IMG/VR virus record: IMGVR_UViG_3300045988_005753
DNA: 64,000 nucleotides
Direction: 5' to 3' (one strand)
Source of the DNA: a virus
Lineage: Duplodnaviria; Heunggongvirae; Uroviricota; Caudoviricetes
Shown here in pieces: positions 15,952 through 58,544 of the stretch (its first letter is position 1; each line of letters starts with the position of its first letter). A program made the translations under genes and the position numbers. Under the pieces are notes generated by a model. It did not search any database. It was not told where the DNA came from and was given only the letters and a program-made list of their open reading frames with translations.

Positions 15952-18501
15952 ATGGCAGATTACAAATTGAGTCAATTAAACTCAATCGACACAATTCGTT
16001 CAGAAGACCTATTGCACATCAGAGTTAAGAAAAGACCTGAAATGTTGGGTGATGAAGACCGCAGAATGACCTATCAAGACTTCTTAGCTTCCTTCAAACT
16101 AGAAAGGTTTGTTCAGATTGCTGGAAGTAATATGACTGGGGATTTAGGTATTGTCAAGTTACTTTATGGTGGTAAGGCAGTATTTGACCCTACAGGTTCT
16201 TCTGAAATTACTATTGGGGATGTTTTAAAGACTTTTAAACTTAATGCAAATGGTCTTAAACTAACTATTGCAGATGCTTCAAGGTCAGCAACTGTTTATC
16301 ATACTCTGAATAAGCCAAGTCCTAATGAGCTTGGTATGAGAACTAATGAAGAGAATGACGCAAGATATGCAAGACTTGCTATCACAAACACATTCTCTGG
16401 AACTCAAAATATTCAAGGTGATGCTAACTTACTTCGCCTTAGAAACCAAAATGCAAATAATGCACAATACATCGAAGGTGTAAACCTAGATGGTTCGGCT
16501 AGATGGTGGGTTGGTATTGGTAGTAATGGCTCTGATGAAGTAAAGCTGTACAATAACAAATACAACTCAGCCTTGACTGTTGCAAGTAATGTCTCTGTTA
16601 ATAAGTCTTTAGCAATCACTGGTCAAGTTCAACCTTCAGATTTCTCTAACTTAGATGCTAGATACTTCACTCAGACAGTTGCTAATCAGAGATTTGCACA
16701 GTTAGCTGCTAATAATAATTTCACGGGCACTAACACGTTTAGTAGAAATCTAACCATCATTAGTGACAGTGCTGCTTTAAGGTTGAAAAATGCAACAGCT
16801 AGCTCACTATTCATTCATGGTGTTGACTCTCAGAACACTAACAGGTGGTATGTAGGGAACGGGGATAACACAGCCTCTGTGCTGCTACACAACTATGTAC
16901 ACGGTTCAAATATCAGGCTTGATAATGGCTATATCTCAGTCAACCAGAACTTCAGAATCACTGGTCAAGTTCAACCTTCGGATTGGACTAATATTGACTC
17001 TAGATATATTCCGGCAGCAACATTAAGTACGATTGCAAGAACTAATGCACAAAATACTTTTAATGGTGTACAGAAAGTTGTTACGGATAATGAAGCCCTA
17101 ATTGTGAAAAACTCTACTCAGAACAGACCATTGTATATCCGTGGTGTGGACACTGCTAATGTGTCAAGGTGGTGGGTAGGTGTTGGTAGGGCAGATAATA
17201 ATGATGTAACCCTAAATAACAGTTATTCTGGAACCCAATTGGTTCTCGGGAATACAACATCATACATTAACAAAACATTGACTATTGCTGGACAAGTTCA
17301 ACCTTCAGATTTCTCTAACTTAGATGCTAGATACTTTACGCAAAGTGCTAGTGATAGTAGATACCTAAGAATCAGAAGCACTAGCTTCAATGTGGGAAAC
17401 ACTGATAAGTGGGCTAAAATTGCCACTGTTGTGATGCCACAATCAGCATCCACTGCTGTTATTGAGGTATTTGGTGGGTCAGGTTTTAATATTAATACAC
17501 CAAACCAAGCAGGTAAATGTGAAATTGTTCTGCGAACTTCAAATAACAATCCAAAGGGCTTAAATGTTGTTGCTTGGAGAACATCAGAGAACACCATTAT
17601 CAGGGATATTGGTTATGTGAATACTTCTGGAGACACCTATGATATTTACTATCTTGCTGGTACGCATCAAAACAGCACAACGACAAGGGTTCAGTCTTCT
17701 AGTAATGCAAGTGTACAGTTGTTTGAAGTCCCACAGACATTTGATGATGCTCCACAAGGTATTGTGAAGGGTACAATTGCAAAATACTACACAAGTTTGC
17801 AAAAACCAACCCCTTCAGATATTGGTGCATACACTAAAGCAGAGACTGACCAGAAAATTGCAGAAGCAATTAGTGACTCTACAGACCTGAATAAAATCTA
17901 TCCAGTAGGTATTGTAACGTGGTTTAACAGTAATGTTAACCCTAATACAGCACTTCCTGGTCTAACTTGGACGTACCTGAACAATGGTGTTGGTAGAACT
18001 ATTAGAATTGCAGCAGCAAACGGTTCAGATGTTGCTACAACTGGTGGTTCAGACTCTGTAACGTTATCTGTTGGTAACTTACCTTCACATACACACAGTT
18101 TCTCTGCTACCACTTCATCATTTGATTATGGTACTAAGACTTCTAGCACAACTGGTAACCATAACCACAACAGAGGTACTATGGAGATTACTGGTTCATT
18201 TGGTTACTTCAGGAGTGACACTAGCAGCTTCTACACAGCAAGTGGTGCATTCCACCTCGGTAGTCAGGCAGGTTCTAAAGGGTTTACTGGTAATAACTTT
18301 ACTAATGGTATCCCTGTCAACTTCAACGCATCAAGAAACTGGTCTGGTGTAACAAATACAACAGGTAACCATAGCCACACTGTAGGTATTGGTGCTCACA
18401 GTCACACTGTTAGTGGTAACACAGGTGGTACTGGTTCTGGTTCAGCATTTAGTGTTACTAACCAGTTCTATAAGCTAATGGCTTGGGTAAGAACTGCTTA
18501 A
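15952..18501 (+). CDS. long tail fibre protein
   Basis: 849 aa; three internal ~110 aa repeats each containing ITGQVQPSD(F/W)(S/T)N(L/I)D(A/S)RY; C-terminal His-box module GNHNHN, GNHSHTVGIGAHSHTV ending ...WVRTA. Confidence 0.6.
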   Translation: MADYKLSQLNSIDTIRSEDLLHIRVKKRPEMLGDEDRRMTYQDFLASFKLERFVQIAGSNMTGDLGIVKLLYGGKAVFDPTGSSEITIGDVLKTFKLNANGLKLTIADASRSATVYHTLNKPSPNELGMRTNEENDARYARLAITNTFSGTQNIQGDANLLRLRNQNANNAQYIEGVNLDGSARWWVGIGSNGSDEVKLYNNKYNSALTVASNVSVNKSLAITGQVQPSDFSNLDARYFTQTVANQRFAQLAANNNFTGTNTFSRNLTIISDSAALRLKNATASSLFIHGVDSQNTNRWYVGNGDNTASVLLHNYVHGSNIRLDNGYISVNQNFRITGQVQPSDWTNIDSRYIPAATLSTIARTNAQNTFNGVQKVVTDNEALIVKNSTQNRPLYIRGVDTANVSRWWVGVGRADNNDVTLNNSYSGTQLVLGNTTSYINKTLTIAGQVQPSDFSNLDARYFTQSASDSRYLRIRSTSFNVGNTDKWAKIATVVMPQSASTAVIEVFGGSGFNINTPNQAGKCEIVLRTSNNNPKGLNVVAWRTSENTIIRDIGYVNTSGDTYDIYYLAGTHQNSTTTRVQSSSNASVQLFEVPQTFDDAPQGIVKGTIAKYYTSLQKPTPSDIGAYTKAETDQKIAEAISDSTDLNKIYPVGIVTWFNSNVNPNTALPGLTWTYLNNGVGRTIRIAAANGSDVATTGGSDSVTLSVGNLPSHTHSFSATTSSFDYGTKTSSTTGNHNHNRGTMEITGSFGYFRSDTSSFYTASGAFHLGSQAGSKGFTGNNFTNGIPVNFNASRNWSGVTNTTGNHSHTVGIGAHSHTVSGNTGGTGSGSAFSVTNQFYKLMAWVRTA

Positions 18502-18580: not shown

Positions 18581-18775
18581 ATGCCTACAATCCTAGCAAT
18601 TCTTCTAAAAAATCTAGGTAGCTTCTTCTGGAAACTCATTTTATCCCTTCTGAGTGAATACATGATTGAGAAAGTGTTCTTTAAGCTTGCAAGATACCTT
18701 GCGAGTAAAACAGACACACCTATTGATGATGAGTTCGTAGATAACTTAGAAAAAGCTTTTAAGGGGGAGAAATAA
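18581..18775 (+). CDS. hypothetical small protein
   Basis: 64 aa ORF with GAGG 6 nt upstream of the ATG; hydrophobic N-terminal half. Confidence 0.4.
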   Translation: MPTILAILLKNLGSFFWKLILSLLSEYMIEKVFFKLARYLASKTDTPIDDEFVDNLEKAFKGEK

Positions 18776-19147
18776 ATGAAGTGGCTAGAGGAAGCTTTTA
18801 AAAATAATATTGGTGCAATTGTAGTTGGTATTTTTAGTGTTATCGGGATGTATACCACTATGCAAGTTTCAAGTGGTAAGCAAGAAGTGTCTGTCACAAC
18901 AAAGTTACAGCAGCTAGATAATTATTCCAAAAGTAACTATTCAGCTATTCGTGATTTACAGTCTGACATGAGACTAATTCAGCTAGGGATGGAGAACCAG
19001 AAAGTCCAGTTAGAGAATGTTAAGGGTGAGAATGCGAAACTTACCAAAACTCTTGATAAATTCTCTGACAGTGTGAACAATCTGGCCCAATCAGTATCAG
19101 CCTTGCAAGCTATTACTGAAAAGAACACAAAGAATACTGAAAAATAA
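18776..19147 (+). CDS. hypothetical membrane-anchored coiled-coil protein
   Basis: 123 aa; one N-terminal hydrophobic helix (IGAIVVGIFSVIGMY) then heptad-like region; overlapping stop/start with the upstream ORF. Confidence 0.4.
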   Translation: MKWLEEAFKNNIGAIVVGIFSVIGMYTTMQVSSGKQEVSVTTKLQQLDNYSKSNYSAIRDLQSDMRLIQLGMENQKVQLENVKGENAKLTKTLDKFSDSVNNLAQSVSALQAITEKNTKNTEK

Positions 19148-50255: not shown

Positions 50256-50591
50256 ATGAAAATCAAAGAGATGAACATCAACATTGTCTTAGAAGAACGT
50301 TGGGAGAACATCAAGAAGCCTGAAAATGGTCATAAGTTCCTCAACAAAATCTTAGTAGCAGCTAAAGAAGAACTGACTGGCAAGGTTGCAGCAGCAATCA
50401 CAATAAAAGTTTGTGTAAAAGGTCTTCCAGACAATCACCAATTTGCACTTGACGTGTTTAAAGAAAACTTCTACAATCCAAACAAACAGATGCTTGAAAG
50501 TAACTTTGCAGTATCTACAAGTATCGTCCATGACAGAAGCTTTATCCTTTACAAAAATATGAGAGGTGAGTCATGCAAGCATATTGGGTAG
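50256..50591 (+). CDS. hypothetical protein
   Basis: 111 aa; GGAGA 5 nt upstream of the ATG. Confidence 0.4.
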   Translation: MKIKEMNINIVLEERWENIKKPENGHKFLNKILVAAKEELTGKVAAAITIKVCVKGLPDNHQFALDVFKENFYNPNKQMLESNFAVSTSIVHDRSFILYKNMRGESCKHIG

Positions 50592-50749
50592 AAATTTTAC
50601 TGTCACTTGGTAGTGTAGCAGTACTTGTTTACCTTCTTTGTAAGTACTTTGCAGAACACAAGAAGTGTGACTACTGTAACGGAGAAGGGTATACAAGAGC
50701 AGGTTGTTGCCCTATGTGTGGTGGTTCTGGTAAAATGTTTAATAAGTAA
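50573..50749 (+). CDS. small membrane-anchored protein with two CxxCxGxG zinc-finger motifs (58 aa, below the track cut-off)
   Basis: ATG at 50573 behind AGGTGA; N-terminal hydrophobic helix, then CDYCNGEG and CPMCGGSG, the DnaJ-type Cys-rich repeat pattern. Confidence 0.35.
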   Translation: MQAYWVEILLSLGSVAVLVYLLCKYFAEHKKCDYCNGEGYTRAGCCPMCGGSGKMFNK

Positions 50750-50777: not shown

Positions 50778-53144
50778 ATGCGCATGGTAAATGACCACGC
50801 AGAAGTGATTAAGAGTTCAACTTCTTTAGAGACGTCTCAAGCACAGATTACAATGACACCTGAGATGTTCAGCCTTTTGAGTTCTGGTGTATACACCTTT
50901 AAAGAAAGGGCAGTGATTCGTGAACTGTCATGTAACGCAGTAGATGCTCAGAAAGAAGCTGGAAAAGAGAACATTCCATTCCATGTGCATTTACCTACTC
51001 GTTTTGAGCCTTACTTCGAAGTTCGTGATTTTGGAACTGGATTGACTCATGATAAAGTTATGAGTTTGTACCTAAACTATGGAGCTTCTACGAAGAATGA
51101 CTCTAATGACTACATTGGTGCAATGGGTATCGGCTCAAAGTCACCATTTTCAATTGCTCAGTCATTCACAGTATCTAGCTATGTTGACGGTGTTGTTAAT
51201 AAGTACTCTGTTTATCTTGAGAATGGTATCCCTCAAGTAACTAAGCTGACAACTAACCCAACAAAAGAACCTAATGGTTTAGCTGTACGTGTGGCAGTTG
51301 CTGACCACCGTATCTCAAAGTTCTTTGAAGAAGCTGGGAATGTGTACTCATACTTCACTGTAAAACCAGAAAGTAATATTGAGTACGACGATGTATTAGC
51401 AGATATGAACGTCATTGCCCGTGAAGAAGGTGTTTATGATGCCATGATTCATAAGCAAAGCTGGCGTTCTAGTGGTAACAGGACAGAGTTTAATGTGGTG
51501 ATGGGTAACATTGCCTACCCTGTTAATATGGAAGCATTACTTGGTGATGATTTCTTCAAAGTATTGCCAGAATTTTTCCGTAGGAGCGTAGACCTTGTAA
51601 ACATCTACATGCCTATTGGTTCAGTTGCTATTGCAGCTTCTCGTGAAGCATTGCAGATGAATGACACGACAAAAAATGTTATCATTGAGGCTACTAAAAA
51701 GATAACTGAAGCAATTACAAAGGATGTTATCAAGAAAGTTAATAGCCAACCTACACTCATGGATGCTGCACAGGCTTATGCTGAGTTACGTTTGAACTCA
51801 CGAGAGATGTTTAATGCTGTGTGTCCAAAGCTAGAGTGGGGAGGTGTTAAGCTTGATTCTCTGGAAGAAGAATTACTAAACATTCGTCGTGGAATTATCT
51901 ACGCAGAAGACGGCTCAGTCATTTACGAACGTGACGGTAAAGGCAATATCAAGGTTGATAGGAACGGGAACAATATCCCTAAAGTAGATTATCTTTATGA
52001 CCCAGTTGCTTATGTCAAGTTCAACTCTTTAGAGAGTAAGATTCGTGCAACATCGCTTTCCTACACTCAAGAGGCAAGTATGTTCAATATCTTTGGCGCA
52101 ATGCGTAAAAGTCAAATTGAACAGTTTTTGTTTGTTATAAATGACCGTCGAAATAAAAATGGTACTGAGAAGACTGTAGGACGCAACCAAATCTTGCGTG
52201 GTGCATGTCGAGACTATGCCAGTGAGTCAAGTCTGTTTCACAGATACAATGGTATTGTCTTTGTATTCTCTACAGAGAAAGAGCTAGACGACTTAATCAA
52301 TCTGCACAAACTTGATAAAAGCTTGTTAAAGATTGTGAAGATGTCTGATAAGGAACATCATTATCAGCGTAAAGAAGCTGTAAGAGGCGTTGTAAAACTT
52401 TGGAAAGCTGTTCCAGCAGAAGGTGTAGCTTCCTATAAAGAGGTTTCAGAGGACTTAGATACGATTGAAGAGCCTCAGCTTTATATTAAGGCAGTAGGCG
52501 ACACAGTTGATGGCGAATGTTTTTGCTCATCTCCAGAAGATGTAGCTAAGTCAGTTGCCAATGTCATTGGAAAGAAAGTATATGTTTTCCGAAAAGCAAA
52601 TTGGAAAAAGATACCAGAAGACTGGATTGAAGTAGATGAGAAGCTCTTGAATGACAGCTTAACTGATGTTCACTGGATTAACCATAACAGGTATATGACA
52701 CGTATCTATATGAATGGTGTCCTTGACCTTACAAGCAGTTGGATTATTGCCAGAAACTTTACGTTCAATAACAGGAAGATTTCTCGTGGCTATTGTTATT
52801 CGCGGGATACAAACAAAACTATCTTCTTAGAAGGTAATGAAGATGCTGTAGAGGCAATGTTTGGTAAAATCCAATACGTTGCTGCACCATTTGCATACAC
52901 TTACATTATTAGTGTGTTGCAAGATTTGAAAAGGTGTCTTGATAATGATACAAAGCTTTACAAGAAAATTAAGAAAGCTGGTGACCGCATGGTCATTAAG
53001 GTGACAAACTACCTTTCAAAAAGAAAACAAGAAAACTTCTTGCTTTCTCATTTAGATTGGAATAAAGTGTCACCTATTGAAGTGAGTAAGTTCTTAGGCT
53101 TTGATGTGAAGTGTGTTCCAGAAGGGACTACAATTTACGATTAA
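50778..53144 (+). CDS. GHKL-family ATPase, rIIA-like
   Basis: 788 aa; RELSCNAVDA (N box, ExxxNAxDA), DFGTGL (G1 box) and GAMGIGSKS (G2 box) define a Bergerat-fold ATPase; a 369 aa partner gene follows. Confidence 0.5.
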   Translation: MRMVNDHAEVIKSSTSLETSQAQITMTPEMFSLLSSGVYTFKERAVIRELSCNAVDAQKEAGKENIPFHVHLPTRFEPYFEVRDFGTGLTHDKVMSLYLNYGASTKNDSNDYIGAMGIGSKSPFSIAQSFTVSSYVDGVVNKYSVYLENGIPQVTKLTTNPTKEPNGLAVRVAVADHRISKFFEEAGNVYSYFTVKPESNIEYDDVLADMNVIAREEGVYDAMIHKQSWRSSGNRTEFNVVMGNIAYPVNMEALLGDDFFKVLPEFFRRSVDLVNIYMPIGSVAIAASREALQMNDTTKNVIIEATKKITEAITKDVIKKVNSQPTLMDAAQAYAELRLNSREMFNAVCPKLEWGGVKLDSLEEELLNIRRGIIYAEDGSVIYERDGKGNIKVDRNGNNIPKVDYLYDPVAYVKFNSLESKIRATSLSYTQEASMFNIFGAMRKSQIEQFLFVINDRRNKNGTEKTVGRNQILRGACRDYASESSLFHRYNGIVFVFSTEKELDDLINLHKLDKSLLKIVKMSDKEHHYQRKEAVRGVVKLWKAVPAEGVASYKEVSEDLDTIEEPQLYIKAVGDTVDGECFCSSPEDVAKSVANVIGKKVYVFRKANWKKIPEDWIEVDEKLLNDSLTDVHWINHNRYMTRIYMNGVLDLTSSWIIARNFTFNNRKISRGYCYSRDTNKTIFLEGNEDAVEAMFGKIQYVAAPFAYTYIISVLQDLKRCLDNDTKLYKKIKKAGDRMVIKVTNYLSKRKQENFLLSHLDWNKVSPIEVSKFLGFDVKCVPEGTTIYD

Positions 53145-53223: not shown

Positions 53224-54333
53224 ATGACTACTAAAACTAAAGCACAGATTGACGCAGAAATTTACAAACTGGTTAAAGAAGGTAAGCTGACTAAAACAGC
53301 TATTGCACAGAAATTTAATACTTCAACCCGTTCAGTCGGTCGTGCTGTAGAGCGTCATGAAGCAACCTTAAAAGGTAAGAAAAAGGTTGCTTCTACACCA
53401 GCTACGAAGACTTTGAAGCAAGTTGCTAAGACCTTTAAGAAGAAAGCTGACAAACCAGTTGAAAAGGTAGTTAAAGATGCTGTACAGAAAGCTCCAGTAA
53501 ATAAACTGCACGAAGCTATGCAGAAAGATGACAAGATTGAGTACATGATTACTGGTGATTCTGTAATTATGACTTATGGTTCAGAATCTGAAATTGTTGA
53601 GTCTACTCATCCGAACTATCAAGAGATTGTAGTTCATGTTGTGAAAGGTGAGTTCAAGAAAGCATTTGAACTGATGAACATTCGTAAGTCTATCGAAAAC
53701 TTCACTCAGGGTGCTATCACAATCAAAGGTGACAAGCTATTCTACGGTGCTGTTGAGATGCGTTCTACTCTGGTTGACCGTATTCTTCACATGATGAAAA
53801 CTGGTGATAAAGGTTTTGAACGACTTGTAATGTTCTTCGAAAAACTGATGGAAAACCCATCTAAAGATTCTGTAGAACAACTTTGGGGATTTGTATCTCA
53901 CCTTGATGTTGAAATTGATGAAGAAGGCTACATCATTGGTTGGAAGAAAGTCTCTACTCGTGAAGGCAAGCTGGTTGACTCTCACACCTACAAAGTACCT
54001 AATGATTTGGGTAACATTGTAGAGATGCCACGTTGGATGGTTGATAATAACCGTAACGTAACTTGCTCTCAAGGTCTTCATGTTGGTGCTTGGGATTACG
54101 TTCGTTGCTTCTCAGGTGATACCATCCTGAAGGTTCGTGTCCATCCACGAGATGTTGTATCTGTTCCAACTGATTACAACGATATGAAGATGCGTTCCTC
54201 TCGTTATGAAGTTGCAGCAATCGTTGATAATCAACGTAAAGTACTGAAAGCATGGGATGGTAAGACTGAAGCTTTGCATGTCATCGTTGGCACTGCTGGT
54301 GAACTCATCTCTCAACGTAAACGTGAAATCTAA
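53224..54333 (+). CDS. hypothetical protein, rIIB-like by position
   Basis: 369 aa gene directly after the GHKL ATPase. Confidence 0.3.
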   Translation: MTTKTKAQIDAEIYKLVKEGKLTKTAIAQKFNTSTRSVGRAVERHEATLKGKKKVASTPATKTLKQVAKTFKKKADKPVEKVVKDAVQKAPVNKLHEAMQKDDKIEYMITGDSVIMTYGSESEIVESTHPNYQEIVVHVVKGEFKKAFELMNIRKSIENFTQGAITIKGDKLFYGAVEMRSTLVDRILHMMKTGDKGFERLVMFFEKLMENPSKDSVEQLWGFVSHLDVEIDEEGYIIGWKKVSTREGKLVDSHTYKVPNDLGNIVEMPRWMVDNNRNVTCSQGLHVGAWDYVRCFSGDTILKVRVHPRDVVSVPTDYNDMKMRSSRYEVAAIVDNQRKVLKAWDGKTEALHVIVGTAGELISQRKREI

Positions 54334-54349
54334 TAAGTAATTTCTTAAA

Positions 54350-54372
54350 AGGCTGCTTCGGCGGCCTTTTTT
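54350..54372 (+). terminator. rho-independent terminator
   Basis: AGGCTGC, loop TTCG, GCGGCCT (one G-U wobble), then TTTTTT. Confidence 0.6.
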
Positions 54373-54374
54373 AT

Positions 54375-54402
54375 TTGTATTTTGTGCAGAGTGCTGTATA
54401 AT
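54375..54402 (+). promoter_or_regulatory. promoter candidate with consensus -10 TATAAT and weak -35
   Basis: TATAAT at 54397-54402; best -35 is TTGTAT at 54375-54380 with a 16-nt spacer. Confidence 0.35.
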
Positions 54403-54433: not shown

Positions 54434-54982
54434 ATGAAGAAATTGATTCTAGGCTTGTGCTTAATGTTTACAGCACACTTATCTTATGCAGTTGACTGCC
54501 CAGAGCTAACAATTAGCCAAAAAGTAAACATGTTAAAAGCTTACCAGTATGGTGAGAATAATATGGGGAAAGGCTGGGGTATTACTCTAGCAGCTATAGC
54601 CTTACAAGAGTCAGAGTTAGGTCTGAAGGTAGAGAATAAAAAGACCCACGACTATGGTATTTTCCAGAATCACTTGAAGACTGTTGTAAAGCGTAACAAA
54701 ATTAGTCCTAATGTGGCTAAAAAGAAACTCTTAAAAGACTTTGACTATGCAGCAAAAGAGACACATAAAGAGCTTGAGTTTTGGACTAAGGTGCATGGTC
54801 ACCCAAAGTCAAAGAAGACTTTACAAAAAGTTTTAGCATCATATAATGCTGGGTATTCGTACAAAATCCCTAAAGCTAAGAAATACTCTCAAGATGTCTA
54901 TAACAATATGAAAGTTATCGCTCAATGTGAATTTGCAACAAACATTTCTAAGGTAAATCATGAAAAAATTAAGAAAGTCTGA
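54434..54982 (+). CDS. secreted lytic transglycosylase (SLT-domain) protein
   Basis: Signal peptide MKKLILGLCLMFTAHLSYA; IALQESEL (catalytic Glu-Ser), DYGIFQ and ASYNAGYS resemble the ES / GLMQ / AYNxG motifs of SLT domains. Confidence 0.5.
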   Translation: MKKLILGLCLMFTAHLSYAVDCPELTISQKVNMLKAYQYGENNMGKGWGITLAAIALQESELGLKVENKKTHDYGIFQNHLKTVVKRNKISPNVAKKKLLKDFDYAAKETHKELEFWTKVHGHPKSKKTLQKVLASYNAGYSYKIPKAKKYSQDVYNNMKVIAQCEFATNISKVNHEKIKKV

Positions 54983-55655
54983 TGAAGTCCTGTGCCATGC
55001 TTATGACTTGCATCCTCATGAGTTAGGTCTTGATTCCTGTGTATGGACTCCAGAACAGTGCAGGGATTTTGAAGACACTGCAAGAGAAGTTGTATGTTCA
55101 CTTGAAGAGTTCCACACATCAGAACCAATTGTGAACGTTGTGGACAAAGAGACTGGACAGGCTATAGGTGTAAGGCGTGACAGTTTAGTCATAGTCAATA
55201 AAGACCTTGTAGAAAAAGGTAACCTCATCTTAGCAGATATTGATGGTGTTCTTACAAATTTTAATCACGAAGATTGCTCAACGGAATTGACTGATGGGTC
55301 ATTCTCACAGTACACTAATCTTCTTGACTCTGTAAGAGCAAAACCAACGTATGTTTTTAGTATTATTGATGCAATTGCTAATCATGCTGCCATTGGACTC
55401 TTGACAGCGAGAGGTGAATCTCAGAGAATACCTACTGAGATGTTTTTAAGGCATAACATAGAGCATGATTACATGCTTTTTATGCGTGGTTTTGGAACTA
55501 ACTCTATAAGTGCAGAAAGTTTAAAAGTGAGGATGATTCAGTCTTGCATTCTTCCTTATTTTAATATAGTATGCTTTATAGAAGATACAGAGAAGAATGT
55601 TCAGAAGGTAAACAGAATCCTTCCACACATTAAAACCATGTTAGTTAAACATTGA
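54960..55655 (+). CDS. HAD-superfamily phosphatase-like protein
   Basis: LILADIDGVL matches HAD motif I (DxDGV/T); 231 aa with a Cys-containing N-terminal extension. Confidence 0.35.
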   Translation: MKKLRKSDEVLCHAYDLHPHELGLDSCVWTPEQCRDFEDTAREVVCSLEEFHTSEPIVNVVDKETGQAIGVRRDSLVIVNKDLVEKGNLILADIDGVLTNFNHEDCSTELTDGSFSQYTNLLDSVRAKPTYVFSIIDAIANHAAIGLLTARGESQRIPTEMFLRHNIEHDYMLFMRGFGTNSISAESLKVRMIQSCILPYFNIVCFIEDTEKNVQKVNRILPHIKTMLVKH

Positions 55656-56131
55656 GAGAAAAACTTATGAACAATATCATTACGGTAGCACTGGACGATA
55701 CGGCAAACAAATCTGAAGTAGTTCGTAAAATGATTCAAGGTAACTTTGAAGGTAAAATTTTCCGTGCTGTTAATGTAAAAGCTGATGGCAGTATTCGTGA
55801 ATATCGTGCATTGTTGAATGTTAAAAAGCACGTAAAAGGTGCTGGTTCAACGACTGCACACAAAGAAAACCTGATGACTATCTATGATATGGGTAAGGCT
55901 TCAGAGTTAGGTGCTGAAGGTATCGTTAAAGAAGGTGCTCCGTATCGCTCTTTCAATCTGGAAACTACTCTTATGCTTTCCTTTACGAGTGGTTCTAAAA
56001 CAATCACTTATCTCTTTACTGATGCTGCAACGGTATCTGCTATTAAGGATAGCACTGTCAAAGCTGGCGTAGTTGCTGCTGCAAAAGCTTCTTCGATGGC
56101 TGCAAATATCCTTGCTAAAGTCCTCGGTTAA
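55652..56131 (+). CDS. hypothetical protein
   Basis: 159 aa ORF with ATGA overlap. Confidence 0.45.
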   Translation: MREKLMNNIITVALDDTANKSEVVRKMIQGNFEGKIFRAVNVKADGSIREYRALLNVKKHVKGAGSTTAHKENLMTIYDMGKASELGAEGIVKEGAPYRSFNLETTLMLSFTSGSKTITYLFTDAATVSAIKDSTVKAGVVAAAKASSMAANILAKVLG

Positions 56132-56142
56132 GGTTAAGATAC

Positions 56143-56164
56143 AGGCTCCTTCGGGAGCCTTTTT
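56143..56164 (+). terminator. rho-independent terminator
   Basis: AGGCTCC, loop TTCG, GGAGCCT, then TTTTT. Confidence 0.6.
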
Positions 56165-56183
56165 CATTTCAGGAGATTGTTAA

Positions 56184-56531
56184 ATGACATTTAAAGAGTT
56201 CTGTCAAGCTACTTTCATAATTGTTTTCTTAGTTGGGGCAGGTGTCTGGGGAGGATACTCTTACAGAGACTACCAAGTTGCTGAAGCTGAGTTAAGTAAT
56301 GAGAAACTAATAAGTGTTGCTAAAGATGCTTATCAGGAAGGTTTAGCCACACTCAGCACCAATTACAAAAATGATTTGAAAGATGTGCTTGCTAAGAATA
56401 AGCATACAAAAGAGGTACTAACATATGAAAAAACTAAGCCAGAGTTTTATAATGTTTGTGTTACTGATAATTATGTCAGGGTGTTCAACGAACAAAGTGA
56501 ACAGTACATTCAAAAACTCCCAAGTAAGTGA
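56184..56531 (+). CDS. i-spanin-like protein (Rz-like)
   Basis: 115 aa with one N-terminal transmembrane helix (FIIVFLVGAGVWGG) and a charged helical remainder; the 3' end overlaps a lipoprotein ORF in another frame. Confidence 0.4.
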   Translation: MTFKEFCQATFIIVFLVGAGVWGGYSYRDYQVAEAELSNEKLISVAKDAYQEGLATLSTNYKNDLKDVLAKNKHTKEVLTYEKTKPEFYNVCVTDNYVRVFNEQSEQYIQKLPSK

Positions 56532-56694
56532 GAGTGACAAGTACACTCAAGAGGAGTCAAGATTCACTGTCAAAGGTAATACCGGTAGTGATGTGGCAGC
56601 AGCCCTTGAGTTTTACCGTGATGGATTCTACCAGTGTACAATCAAAGCTAATAACCTTATTGATATGATTTTATTAGGAAACAAACAGCAATGA
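56425..56694 (+). CDS. o-spanin-like lipoprotein (Rz1-like), overlapping in the +1 frame
   Basis: MKKLSQSFIMFVLLIIMSGC: signal peptide with an M-S-G-C lipobox; the ORF starts inside 56184..56531 in a different frame. Confidence 0.4.
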   Translation: MKKLSQSFIMFVLLIIMSGCSTNKVNSTFKNSQVSESDKYTQEESRFTVKGNTGSDVAAALEFYRDGFYQCTIKANNLIDMILLGNKQQ

Positions 56695-56960
56695 CAGAGA
56701 ATGAAGATACTTTTTACGTAGAAGGTTACTTACTGTTACCACGACCAAAAGAAACTTATATGCGGGTTGATTTCTCACCAACCATTATGGATAACGTGAT
56801 GTGTCATATCTTTATGCAAGGTGTCACAGCACAGCTTAAGCACGTTGGTAAAGAGTGCAAAATAAAGGTTGACACTCATCCAGAAATCAAAGAGAATCAC
56901 TACACATGGTTCTTACCAGACTCTAAAGAAATCTTAGCAGTTCTTAAAACGAGGAAGTAA
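56691..56960 (+). CDS. hypothetical protein
   Basis: 89 aa ORF. Confidence 0.45.
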   Translation: MTENEDTFYVEGYLLLPRPKETYMRVDFSPTIMDNVMCHIFMQGVTAQLKHVGKECKIKVDTHPEIKENHYTWFLPDSKEILAVLKTRK

Positions 56961-56962
56961 CT

Positions 56963-57289
56963 ATGCAGATTAATGGAAGAGACTTTGTAGCCATTTACTA
57001 CGAGAAAGATAAAGAAGTTGGCGTAGCACAAGTATCTTATGGTAATGGTAAGTGGTTGTATGGGACAATCGCAGTAGTTGGAACAAGAAGTGATACAAAA
57101 ACTTTTAAAGATTGTGTTGACCTTCTTGAAGAATCCATCCACAATCATTGGTGTCTAATATGGATGACTGACAACGAAGTGATAGAACGCTTCAAAAAGA
57201 TTGGTATCAACATTGATAGTATTGAGCATGTTGATTTATATGAGCTAACTGAGAAGGTAAACTATGAAAGTAATACTAGCCAGAGATAA
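56963..57289 (+). CDS. hypothetical protein
   Basis: 108 aa ORF. Confidence 0.45.
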   Translation: MQINGRDFVAIYYEKDKEVGVAQVSYGNGKWLYGTIAVVGTRSDTKTFKDCVDLLEESIHNHWCLIWMTDNEVIERFKKIGINIDSIEHVDLYELTEKVNYESNTSQR

Positions 57290-57684: not shown

Positions 57685-58470
57685 ATGGGTATTGTAAAAA
57701 TCATCAATGGCGATATCTTTGCCGCATTTGATAAAGGTAAGTTTGACATTATTGGTCACGGTTGCAACTGTATGAATTTAATGGGTGCAGGTATCGCTGA
57801 CAAGATTTCTAAACTTTACCCAAAAGCATATGAGACAGATACAGAAATCTATCTATATGCAGGTGGCATAGGTCACAAACCCTGTGAAAATTTACTGGGT
57901 AATTTCTCTGTAGCACGTTTAAAACAAGGTCGTATAGCTAACCTTTACACTCAGCTTAAGACTGGTAAAGATGCCCGATACAGTGCTTTAGAGTCATCTT
58001 TGAAACAGCTTAACAGATACTGTGAAGTTAACCAGTTGAAGAAGGTTGGTCTACCTATGATTGGTGCAGGTATCGGTGGACTTGACCCTCAAGCTGTCAC
58101 AGTTATCATCAATCAGGTGATGAAGAGTGTAGATGTTTATCTGTATGTCTATGAAGGAGAGATGTACCACAAGTTACGCTCAGGTTGGAAGAACTACTGT
58201 GAACCAGAATACTTTGCAGGTGTAGCAGTGTTCACGGATAACGCAGTTACCCTCTTCAGACGAAGAAAAGCTAAGATACATCAAAGTAACCCTCCGGTTG
58301 AAAGGATGTCTCTAAGTAACGCTCTAGTTACCCACCTGTCGAAGAGCAATCACAGAATAGCTGTGACATTTGGTAGTGATGCAGATGCTTACATCTATGC
58401 AAGAACTGATGAGGATATCGAGGCAATTTTCTCATCACCGGAAGTTACCTTCTTAGACGCAAAGAACTAA
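57685..58470 (+). CDS. macro-domain protein (ADP-ribose binding/processing)
   Basis: DIIGHGCNCMNLMGAGIA and GLPMIGAGIGGLD resemble the two glycine-rich signature segments of macro domains (xNAANxxLxxGGGV and AFPxISTGxYG). Confidence 0.45.
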   Translation: MGIVKIINGDIFAAFDKGKFDIIGHGCNCMNLMGAGIADKISKLYPKAYETDTEIYLYAGGIGHKPCENLLGNFSVARLKQGRIANLYTQLKTGKDARYSALESSLKQLNRYCEVNQLKKVGLPMIGAGIGGLDPQAVTVIINQVMKSVDVYLYVYEGEMYHKLRSGWKNYCEPEYFAGVAVFTDNAVTLFRRRKAKIHQSNPPVERMSLSNALVTHLSKSNHRIAVTFGSDADAYIYARTDEDIEAIFSSPEVTFLDAKN

Positions 58471-58544
58471 GAAACTCTGTAGAATATTCACAATAGACTA
58501 AGCCTTTCTTATCTGGTAAATTTTTCAGGTAAGGGGGGCTTTTT

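Follow-up and report, generated by a model that had tools for sequence, protein, structure and literature searches.

A predicted secreted Vs.1-family SLT protein and a separate overlapped spanin pair in a Felixounavirus phage

Do the genes at positions 54434-56694 of this tailed-phage DNA form one atypical lysis module, or are they separate genes of known kinds? The sequence-only reading of the window (the whole stretch of 64,000 nucleotides analysed here) had described an atypical lysis-related cluster made of a secreted SLT-like transglycosylase and an overlapping spanin-like pair. All of the ORFs it listed exist at the coordinates given (54434-54982, 56184-56531, and 56425-56694). It was found that the window belongs to Felixounavirus (Felix O1-like phages), with 96-97% identity to many sequenced phages, and that it corresponds to approximately 21.3-87.1 kb of a relative's genome. 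The block spanning the SLT gene to the spanin genes is covered by 230 Felixounavirus records. The explanation that best accounts for all the evidence, and which I consider quite probable, is that the interval holds two separate known gene kinds rather than a single atypical lysis module. The first of them is the following.

54434..54982, plus strand: predicted Vs.1-family secreted SLT/GH23 lytic transglycosylase, 182 aa
54434-54490 (residues 1-19), plus strand: predicted Sec signal peptide of the SLT protein, from n/h/c rules and conservation

The motifs and homologues of this 182-aa protein support its reading as an enzyme of the SLT fold that carries a Sec-type signal peptide. The SLT motifs are present as E59-S60, G75-I-F-Q78, and Y137-N-A-G140. 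In an alignment of 16 homologues, E59, Q78, Y137, N138, G140, and Y151 do not vary and S60 hardly does; the motifs are also conserved across nine phage lineages. The motifs align with NES and GIMQ of EtgA, the best solved relative within the lysozyme-like SLT fold that was found for the protein. Foldseek E-values are weak (0.02-1), while the matches belong to the same families throughout. The Pfam SLT (PF01464) score of the window protein is 18.7 bits, just under the GA of 21.3; 15 of the 16 homologues match the same family with E <= 0.01 (best 8e-12), and Vs.1 orthologues score 21.4-40 bits. Besides the catalytic residues (E59-S60, Q78, Y137-N138-x-G140, and Y151), the mature protein has Cys22 and Cys165. 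Both cysteines are present in six of the nine lineages sampled and both are absent in three. Is the protein perhaps a catalytically dead module for peptidoglycan binding or regulation? The sub-threshold Pfam score would suit such a module, as would a literature on Vs.1 homologues that is without activity reports. Against this, lineages with an overall identity of only about 30% all share the general-acid Glu and the GxxQ, YNxG, and Y motifs without change. Such invariance is what an active enzyme would be expected to show, and a dead module is very unlikely.

The signal peptide was assessed by sequence rules and conservation. The N-terminus reads MKKLILGLCLMFTAHLSYA, with VD following the predicted cleavage site; the n-region is basic, the h-region has 13 residues, and the residues at -3 and -1 are small (S and A). 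The c-region S-Y-A before V fits the signal rules, the n, h, and c regions are conserved in homologues, and signal-like N-termini were found in all nine phage lineages sampled. The AF2 model has low confidence at residues 1-20. An h-region of just 13 residues, together with the cleavage motif, makes a SAR-type domain unlikely. A lipoprotein reading (L-G-L-C9) was rejected; the Leu at -1 breaks the lipobox, and the Cys is not conserved. A cleavable Sec signal also bears on whether the protein might be a virion-associated or injection-stage hydrolase for the wall of the next host. SLT domains do occur in many phage virion proteins, and T7 gp16 and phiKZ gp144 are among the fold matches. Nevertheless, such a signal would take the protein out into the periplasm, whereas virions are assembled in the cytoplasm, and the gene lies in a non-structural block after rIIA/rIIB. 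The cryo-EM paper on Bas63, a Felixounavirus phage, mentions transglycosylase for other systems only, and the running text on the VpaE1 virion proteome names structural-region proteins only. A role in the virion is extremely unlikely.

In public Felixounavirus records, the SLT gene is left as 'hypothetical' in many cases, mislabelled as 'endoribonuclease', 'RegB', or 'PseT' in others, and named 'lysin' or 'putative lysin' in some.

To which family does the protein belong? A T4-like Vs.1 was matched by BLASTP (E 5e-17, 32% identity over residues 1-155, nearly full length), and the tblastn matches of the SLT protein fall on genes annotated vs.1 in T4-like phages. By these alignments, the SLT protein is a member of the T4 Vs.1 family, homologues of which were found in 2,128 phage records. 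In T4 on a laboratory K-12 strain on LB, 46 of the 52 TA sites in vs.1 were hit, which marks the gene as non-essential; this result may not transfer to Felix O1-like phages. In the same data, e (4 of 45 TA sites hit) and t (1 of 65) are both essential, and the analogous spanin genes pseT.3/pseT.2 are essential or show a strong fitness defect. The dispensability of T4 vs.1 next to the essentiality of e and t argues, indirectly through homology, against the SLT protein as the lysis enzyme. No significant vs.1 effect was found among the T4 conditions examined. One T4 dataset has vs.1 nominally depleted (log2FC -1.0, p 0.04, adjusted p 1.0), but this row was disregarded as a library-versus-library comparison. 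Nothing decisive came out of the literature searched, whether on what Vs.1 or the Felixounavirus protein does, on when it is expressed (PMC4690856 included), or on whether it is in the virion. The link of phrog_600 to T4 Vs.1 points to a secreted, apparently active, dispensable muralytic enzyme that is conserved in more than 2,000 phage genomes.

Is the SLT protein the only cell-wall enzyme, as had been thought? The endolysin of the genus, a protein of the T4-lysozyme type (Pfam Phage_lysozyme PF00959, 1e-40), is encoded at 5.9-6.3 kb of the relative's genome. Since it was absent from the window by tblastn, the notion of an only enzyme is an artefact of the window edge. The PF00959 lysozyme has been described as the endolysin of Felix O1-like phages (PMC4319497, PMC4392139). 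The layout with scattered lysis genes has also been published for these phages (PMC4319497), so that the lysis system is the known one of the genus and not atypical. As for the holin, it is true that none lies within 54434-56694, whereas the idea of a holin-less mechanism did not hold up, given a candidate with one TMD elsewhere in the window.

18581..18775, plus strand: small amphipathic protein, speculatively a holin partner or antiholin, 64 aa, immediately 5′ of the holin candidate; phrog_402
18776..19147, plus strand: holin candidate, 123 aa, with a TMD at residues 10-29 (KD profile) and a helical C-terminal domain; phrog_4038, no function assigned

The 123-aa candidate lies directly 3′ of the tail-fibre gene (15952-18501) and is 98% identical to the 'putative holin' of Pr103Blw, while it matches no Pfam holin family. 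A class-III holin with one TMD and an N-in, C-out topology has been described in phage Mushroom (PMC4392139), and the predicted features of the candidate fit this description. In the 64-aa protein, no hydrophobic segment above the KD threshold was found.

Next, the transcription units around the SLT gene were considered. The features upstream and downstream of the gene are as follows.

50778-53144, plus strand: rIIA, upstream context, annotated in relatives
53224-54333, plus strand: rIIB, upstream context, from the annotation in relatives and Pfam Phage_T4_rIIB matches in homologous loci
54347..54370, plus strand: intrinsic terminator after rIIB, a 10-bp stem then a T-run; phage ASO1A has a terminator annotation at the same site
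54375..54402, plus strand: putative sigma-70-like promoter of the SLT gene, with a perfect TATAAT (54397-54402) and a weak -35, read from the sequence
54960..55655, plus strand: PseT-like HAD phosphatase ('polynucleotide kinase' in annotations); phrog_3970, 1e-134; homologues match HAD_PNKP
55667..56131, plus strand: conserved protein, last gene of the SLT unit; phrog_2267, weak WYL_2/Sm-like match
56143..56160, plus strand: intrinsic terminator that separates the spanin genes from the SLT unit, a 7-bp GC-rich stem then TTTTT; annotated as a terminator in ASO1A

The site equivalent to the putative promoter is annotated as a promoter in ASO1A (3 mismatches). Because a stricter consensus scan missed 54375..54402, this promoter is counted as inferred. 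The phosphatase gene overlaps the SLT gene by 23 nt, and the overlap is kept in the distant relatives L005 and L008. The two genes would head a unit that ends at the terminator at 56143-56160. Between this terminator and the i-spanin gene, no promoter was found, including in the ASO1A annotation. Read-through of the terminator must therefore be assumed for spanin expression, and thus co-transcription of the SLT gene and the spanin genes is possible. On the other hand, more distant relatives retain the pairing of the SLT and phosphatase genes with no spanin pair downstream; in two distant Ounavirinae-like contigs, no pair of a TMD protein and a lipobox protein was found downstream of the SLT gene. 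Neither the distant relatives nor any other lineage sampled keeps the SLT gene and the spanin genes adjacent. With two unrelated genes and a terminator in between, the SLT gene and the spanin genes do not make up the cluster that had been proposed.

This arrangement bears directly on whether the SLT protein could be a Sec-dependent signal-peptide endolysin, which would wait in the periplasm, become active on collapse of the membrane potential by a holin or pinholin, and form a lysis module with the spanins, beside or in place of the cytoplasmic lysozyme. The architecture and size are those of an endolysin that has been tested by experiment, the 188-aa signal-peptide SLT protein of Campylobacter phage F352, which is azide-sensitive and activated by a holin (PMC7692668). 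In addition, the SLT gene lies about 1.2 kb upstream of the spanin genes throughout Felixounavirus (230 records), some records carry the names 'lysin' or 'putative lysin', and the holin of the genus is only a candidate. Since that holin is unproven and none was identified in phage Meda (PMC6486253), the secreted enzyme may still contribute to lysis. However, the genus has a canonical PF00959 endolysin, T4 vs.1 is non-essential while e is essential, and F352 Lys aligns at the signal peptide only. Moreover, a terminator and two unrelated genes precede the spanin genes, the SLT gene stands beside lysis genes in no other lineage sampled, and the distant Ounavirinae-like relatives lose the spanin adjacency. 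I regard an endolysin of this kind as rather improbable. F352 Lys had also been tried as a relative of the SLT protein and was rejected; hhalign aligns the signal peptide only (probability 1.6%), and the homologue P0021 gave a BLASTP E of 0.74.

If the enzyme is an accessory one, what might it do? It is conceivable, although doubtful, that the Vs.1-type enzyme acts outside lysis, in early peptidoglycan remodelling, superinfection interference, or counter-defence, as a conditionally useful accessory gene. It would have its own putative sigma-70-type promoter directly after rIIA/rIIB, and its neighbours are of the accessory or anti-defence type: rIIA/rIIB, the PseT-like phosphatase, and a macro-domain protein, whose gene is an accessory-type neighbour near the SLT gene block in the window. 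T4 vs.1 adjoins regB, vs, and tk.4, and tk.4 is reported to act against DarTG2. Although T4 can do without vs.1 on K-12, the gene is conserved, catalytic motifs intact, in more than 2,000 phage records, which is typical of conditional-fitness genes. The T4 data examined speak against such a role insofar as they hold no significant vs.1 effect, the single vs.1 row examined being a library-versus-library comparison with an adjusted p of 1.0. It is likewise only tentatively suggested that the Vs.1 family represents widespread, holin-independent, Sec-exported lytic transglycosylases (in Felix O1-like phages, T4-like phages, Kuttervirus, and other large myophages) with a conditional periplasmic job and not host lysis. 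The role of the secreted Vs.1-type enzyme is a tractable question in the model systems T4 and Felix O1.

What, then, is the second gene kind in the interval?

56184..56531, plus strand: i-spanin, 115 aa, with a TMD at residues 3-26 and a periplasmic domain with a conserved Cys92; phrog_1152 'Rz-like spanin', 9e-42; publicly annotated
56425..56694, plus strand: o-spanin, 89 aa; phrog_4180, 5e-51; phrog_456 'Rz-like spanin', 8e-5
56425-56484, plus strand: predicted signal peptide of the o-spanin with the lipobox MSGC; the codon of Cys20 (lipidation site) is at 56482-56484

The proposal of an overlapping spanin pair was borne out by the phrog_1152 match, the conserved features, the cassette of phage Solent, and the listing of Felix O1 in a spanin survey. 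By sequence, the pair is a genuine two-component spanin, one that has already been annotated publicly. The sole hydrophobic segment of the i-spanin is at residues 3-26 (KD 2.14), and the TMD is conserved in SUSP1, Panisse, and Solent. A single-sequence AF2 model of the i-spanin is all-helical, although its pLDDT of only 48 makes it too uncertain for use. The o-spanin gene lies in the +1 frame, overlaps the i-spanin gene by 107 nt, and extends past the i-spanin stop codon, which places it in the overlapped class; a Shine-Dalgarno sequence AAGAGG lies 9 nt upstream of it. Its product begins with MKK and an uncharged h-region and reads MKKLSQSFIMFVLLIIMSG-C20-S around the lipidation site, with Ser and no Asp at +2. 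In the six frames of the 64-kb window, it was the only ORF that passed a simple lipoprotein-signal rule, and none passed in 50 shuffles.

Homologues of the o-spanin were found in 359 phage records. In the homologues aligned, the lipobox is MSGC, TASC, or ISAC, and the +2 residue is S or T. Cys92 of the i-spanin and Cys71 of the o-spanin are conserved in all four aligned phages. Even at 28-34% identity, spanin homologues keep the TMD, the lipobox, the non-Asp residue at +2, and one periplasmic Cys each. In phage Solent, the homologous pair belongs to a cassette of holin/antiholin, endolysin, holin/antiholin, i-spanin, and o-spanin. Felix O1, FO1a, and UAB_Phi87 were placed in the 'overlapped' class of the spanin survey (PMC6139136). 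As for annotation, the RefSeq record of SUSP1 uses the same 89-aa start of the o-spanin, while in many records the gene is missing or its start codon is placed such that the signal peptide is lost. For Felix O1-like phages, the literature already covers the spanin pair and the scattered lysis genes as well as the uncertainty about the holin.

How may these genes work during infection? With the mechanism taken over by analogy from lambda Rz/Rz1, the i-spanin would be held in the inner membrane by its N-terminal TMD, and the o-spanin would leave the cytoplasm through Sec, receive its lipid at Cys20, and end up in the outer membrane. Joined across the periplasm, the pair would complete lysis by disrupting the outer membrane once the peptidoglycan has been destroyed. 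The earlier steps would be carried out by genes elsewhere, namely the soluble T4-lysozyme-type endolysin outside the window and the putative one-TMD holin, giving a scattered, T4-like lysis layout overall. The SLT gene, in turn, would head a three-gene unit in the order promoter, SLT gene, PseT-like phosphatase gene, phrog_2267 gene, and terminator. Its cleavable Sec signal would bring the enzyme to the periplasm without a holin, where a Cys22-Cys165 disulfide probably forms, and the SLT domain, with E59 as the general acid, most likely works as a lytic transglycosylase that cuts glycan strands. If T4 is a guide, the SLT protein would be a muralytic enzyme of the periplasm that is accessory and dispensable, and the endolysin would be another protein; this is part of the overall explanation that I consider quite probable.

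Finally, the two gene kinds were compared with known systems. Like P2 LysB-LysC and the overlapped spanins of Felix O1, the window pair has an i-spanin with an N-terminal TMD and an o-spanin lipoprotein whose +1-frame gene begins before the i-spanin gene has ended and runs on past it. As in overlapped spanins, for which lambda Rz/Rz1 are the functional paradigm, each protein has one conserved periplasmic Cys, while the window pair is without sequence similarity to Rz/Rz1. The lipobox MSGC, with Met at -3, is slightly off the consensus [LVI][ASTVI][GAS]C, and the spanin genes stand outside any lysis cassette.

The SLT protein resembles the endolysin of the Campylobacter Fletchervirus phage F352 in being a small protein with a cleavable-type signal peptide and an SLT domain, in the scattered lysis genes, and in the holin-independent Sec export predicted here; the paradigm of a signal-peptide endolysin is Lys44 of Oenococcus phage fOg44. 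In F352 the SLT protein is itself the endolysin, whereas Felix O1-like and T4-like phages encode a cytoplasmic lysozyme separately. Specialised lytic transglycosylases of secretion systems include EtgA, IagB, IpgF, VirB1, and P19. Unlike these enzymes, the SLT protein is phage-encoded and has no associated secretion apparatus, and its relationship to EtgA is at the superfamily level only (about 20% identity). A further likeness is to T4 Vs.1: both proteins are 181-182 aa in length, begin with a Sec-type signal, and share the ES, GxFQ, YNxG, and Y motifs, and the genes of both lie in early or accessory regions not far from a macro-domain gene. They differ in that the Felixounavirus protein carries Cys22/Cys165 while Tequatrovirus Vs.1 is without the pair, and in their neighbours, which are regB and vs for T4 vs.1 but rIIB and the PseT-like phosphatase gene for the Felixounavirus SLT gene.

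The locus quite probably combines a pair of known spanins with an unlinked, T4 Vs.1-type accessory periplasmic muralytic enzyme, while the holin and the endolysin are encoded elsewhere in the genome. A nucleotide search of phage records with a 5.5-kb query centred on this region found 276 matching records, 230 of which have at least 80% query coverage and 90-97% identity; nearly all of these belong to Felixounavirus, the Felix O1-like myophages that infect Escherichia, Salmonella, and Shigella. The window is collinear with 21,342-87,125 of the 88.4-kb genome of phage vB_EcoM-Pr103Blw (Pr103Blw). The local order is rIIA, rIIB, a 182-aa SLT-like protein, a PseT-like phosphatase, a phrog_2267 protein, the i-spanin, the o-spanin, several small ORFs, and a macro-domain protein. 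The features are as follows (terminators from a sequence scan).

18776-19147, holin candidate of 123 aa with one TMD (residues 10-29), directly 3' of the tail-fibre gene
54347-54370, intrinsic terminator after rIIB
54434-54982, 182-aa SLT-like protein
54960-55655, PseT-like phosphatase
55667-56131, phrog_2267 protein
56143-56160, intrinsic terminator between the phrog_2267 gene and the i-spanin gene
56184-56531, 115-aa ORF (i-spanin)
56425-56694, 89-aa ORF (o-spanin)
57685-58470, macro-domain protein
58500-58541, intrinsic terminator after the macro-domain gene

About 300 bp with one small ORF (Pr103Blw 79661-79975) are missing from the window 3' of the spanins and present in several close relatives (window about 56950-56975 compared with MW481326 79674-79948). 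Just 5' of rIIA, a 58-aa ORF (50573-50749) combines an N-terminal TMD with a CxxC...CxxC zinc-ribbon-like tail; its label in Pr103Blw is 'putative membrane protein'.

Sequence and structure analyses revealed an SLT fold with intact catalytic motifs (E59-S60, G-I-F-Q78, and Y137-N-A-G140) in the 182-aa protein. The Pfam SLT profile matches this protein marginally (18.7 bits; threshold, 21.3). A database search found 22 homologues, and Pfam SLT matches 15 of the 16 aligned ones (best E, 8e-12). In the alignment of 16 sequences, E59, G63, Q78, Y137, N138, G140, and Y151 are invariant and S60 is nearly so. The best solved relative by the family profile is EtgA (E, 3.6e-5), a type III secretion-associated lytic transglycosylase that aligns at its catalytic NES and GIMQ motifs. 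AlphaFold models residues 21 to about 165 with confidence (mean pLDDT, 85.7; pTM, 0.80), and the top Foldseek matches of the model are only g-type lysozymes and lytic transglycosylases, with weak E-values. Lytic transglycosylase chemistry would be expected of this protein.

The N-terminus, MKKLILGLCLMFTAHLSYA followed by VD, fits the n/h/c rules with S at -3 and A at -1, and the confidence of the AF2 model is low for residues 1-20. An equivalent of this signal-like segment is present in every homologue (nine phage lineages). Six lineages have both Cys22 and Cys165 and three have neither, a pattern that would be expected of a periplasmic disulfide. The protein is probably exported via Sec; the signal would be cleaved after A19, and a Cys22-Cys165 disulfide would form. 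With a hydrophobic core of just 13 residues and a cleavage motif, the segment is unlikely to be a SAR domain. A lipoprotein reading (LGLC9) was rejected, since Leu at -1 does not fit a lipobox and homologues do not conserve the Cys.

A tblastn search of the phage collection with the 182-aa protein found 2,128 records, about 220 from Felixounavirus and about 1,870 with less than 60% identity. The latter are mostly T4-like phages with the gene label vs.1 ('transglycosylase SLT domain-containing protein'), and further carriers are Kuttervirus, Schizotequatrovirus, Acinetobacter phages, and Aeromonas phages. In BLASTP, the protein aligns almost full-length with a Tequatrovirus Vs.1 (32% identity; E, 5e-17), whose N-terminus, MRKALLAGLLAISMMAHS followed by SE, is also signal-like. 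Judging from these matches, the 182-aa protein is a homologue of T4 Vs.1; its family membership, like the terminators and the spanin hallmarks, was revealed by sequence or structure analysis. The family has been recognised since the T4 genome era, and the protein itself is 100% identical to one deposited protein. No functional study of Vs.1 was found in the literature. In a transposon-sequencing preprint (10.1101/2025.11.20.689424, supplementary table), T4 vs.1 was disrupted at 46/52 TA sites and classified as Non-essential. In the same dataset, e (endolysin, 4/45), t (holin, 1/65), and pseT.3 (i-spanin, 5/28) are Essential, and pseT.2 (o-spanin, 6/30) has a Strong fitness defect. By analogy with T4, the 182-aa protein would have an accessory, non-essential role.

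Some records mislabel Vs.1-family proteins as 'protein RegB' or 'endoribonuclease' (Salmonella phage dinky_79, locus L015 2902-3519; homologue rows H30 and H45), and that of phage Shy is labelled 'putative PseT polynucleotide'; the wrong names were probably transferred from a nearby gene. A 215-kb contig from a Campylobacter coli assembly also encodes a Vs.1-like homologue (L006 7001-7582), and its chimallin-like protein (PF25677; L006 9019-10953) suggests a nucleus-forming jumbo-phage-like element in Campylobacter. Felix O1-like SLT-protein and o-spanin genes also occur in records named 'Staphylococcus phage SA1' and 'Listeria phage LPML1' (H78; H107), whose stated hosts look doubtful.

The three ORFs of the sequence-only reading were found at exactly its coordinates, and its proposal of a two-component spanin was borne out. 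The 115-aa ORF has only one hydrophobic segment (residues 3-26). The 89-aa ORF starts inside it in the +1 frame (107-nt overlap), with an AAGAGG Shine-Dalgarno sequence 9 nt upstream, and begins with MKK, an uncharged hydrophobic stretch, and M-S-G-C20-S. Among all Met-initiated ORFs in the six frames of the window, only this ORF passes a simple lipoprotein-signal rule (0 in 50 shuffles); the pattern is confirmed and is more than chance. The i-spanin matches phrog_1152 'Rz-like spanin' (9e-42); the matches of the o-spanin are phrog_4180 (5e-51), which has no assigned function, and phrog_456 'Rz-like spanin' (8e-5). Public records already label the pair as i-spanin and o-spanin, and a published survey includes Felix O1, FO1a, and UAB_Phi87 in the 'overlapped' spanin class (PMC6139136). 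In all, 359 phage records contain an o-spanin homologue. In Kolesnikvirus Panisse and siphophage Solent (28-34% identity), the o-spanins keep the signal peptide, lipobox (TASC, ISAC), S/T at +2, second periplasmic Cys, and C-terminal NxLID motif, and the i-spanins keep the TMD and periplasmic Cys. In Solent, the pair ends a canonical cassette (holin/antiholin, endolysin, holin/antiholin, i-spanin, o-spanin). These results settle the spanin identity as far as sequence analysis allows. As with lambda Rz/Rz1, the pair would disrupt the outer membrane after peptidoglycan degradation. The single-sequence AF2 model of the i-spanin (pLDDT, 48) is too poor to support a helical periplasmic domain.

Several public records place the o-spanin start at or beyond the Met of 'MSGC', so that its signal peptide is lost, or omit the gene; Pr103Blw starts at that Met, Shy at Val25, and ASO1A lacks the gene (loci L001 6474-6695, L002 4497-4694, and L009). 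The start at 56425 is correct, and the same full 89-aa ORF is in the SUSP1 RefSeq record. The PseT-like phosphatase gene lies two genes 5' of the spanin genes, and the T4 spanin genes are also near pseT, although the order differs (alc > pseT.3 > pseT.2 > pseT.1 > pseT).

Do the SLT gene and the spanin genes form an atypical lysis cluster, as had been proposed? In the curated ASO1A record, all three terminators are annotated, as is a promoter just 5' of the SLT gene, with none before the i-spanin gene, and the window has a perfect TATAAT at 54397-54402. Thus, the SLT gene is the first of three genes in one unit, followed by the PseT-like phosphatase gene, which it overlaps by 23 nt, and the phrog_2267 gene. 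The next stretch contains the spanins, which read-through would reach. Two distant Ounavirinae-like contigs (37-38% identity) keep rIIA, rIIB, SLT, an overlapping HAD_PNKP gene, and, farther on, a Macro gene, and have no TMD-plus-lipobox pair 3' of the SLT gene. Kolesnikvirus has four additional genes between the phosphatase block and the spanins. No annotated lysis gene adjoins the Vs.1 gene in the sampled loci of T4-like phages, Kuttervirus, Schizotequatrovirus, and Acinetobacter phages; its neighbours there are regB/vs/tk.4, nrd, or rI-region genes. Since the adjacency is lost in relatives and other lineages, it is genus-specific, with no sign of a functional module. The proposed cluster is contradicted by the intervening terminator, this restricted adjacency, and an endolysin encoded elsewhere.

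The macro-domain protein (Pfam Macro, 7.8e-8) closes the same gene block and may have an anti-DarT function. In the distant contigs L005 and L008, a Vs.1-like gene is likewise followed by a macro-domain gene, and the T4 macro-domain gene tk.4, whose product is a reported anti-DarTG2 factor (AdfM), is two genes from vs.1.

The Felixounavirus endolysin is of the T4-lysozyme type (Pfam Phage_lysozyme, 1.2e-40; phrog_7) and is encoded at 5.9-6.3 kb of Pr103Blw, beyond the window; a tblastn search of the window for it found no match. Thus, the SLT-like protein appeared to be the only cell-wall enzyme because of the window edge. No holin adjoins the spanins, a known state of affairs, but a putative one is encoded at 18776-19147 and shares 98% identity with the 'putative holin' of Pr103Blw. 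Because this candidate matches no Pfam holin family, the holin of the genus is unproven; none was identified in phage Meda (PMC6486253). T4 holin t likewise lies directly 3' of tail-fibre genes 37 and 38. A 64-aa amphipathic ORF (18581-18775; phrog_402) lies between the tail-fibre gene (15952-18501) and the candidate, and may encode its partner. Both the spanins and the scattered arrangement of the lysis genes have been published before.

If the Vs.1-type enzyme is indeed accessory, its role may even lie outside lysis, in remodelling, superinfection, or counter-defence. Such a role is suggested by the gene neighbours, which are of an accessory or anti-defence type in Felix O1-like and T4-like genomes alike, and I regard it as a tentative option. 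The closest experimentally studied analogue is the 188-aa signal-peptide SLT endolysin of Campylobacter Fletchervirus F352, which cannot lyse E. coli without the phage holin or in the presence of azide (PMC7692668). This case shows that a Sec-exported SLT enzyme can act as an endolysin in a Gram-negative host, as had been imagined for the window protein; that the latter is a working signal-peptide endolysin is nevertheless improbable. Except for the signal peptide, the F352 enzyme has no sequence relationship to the Vs.1 family, and while no second endolysin is reported in F352, one is present in Felix O1-like and T4-like phages.
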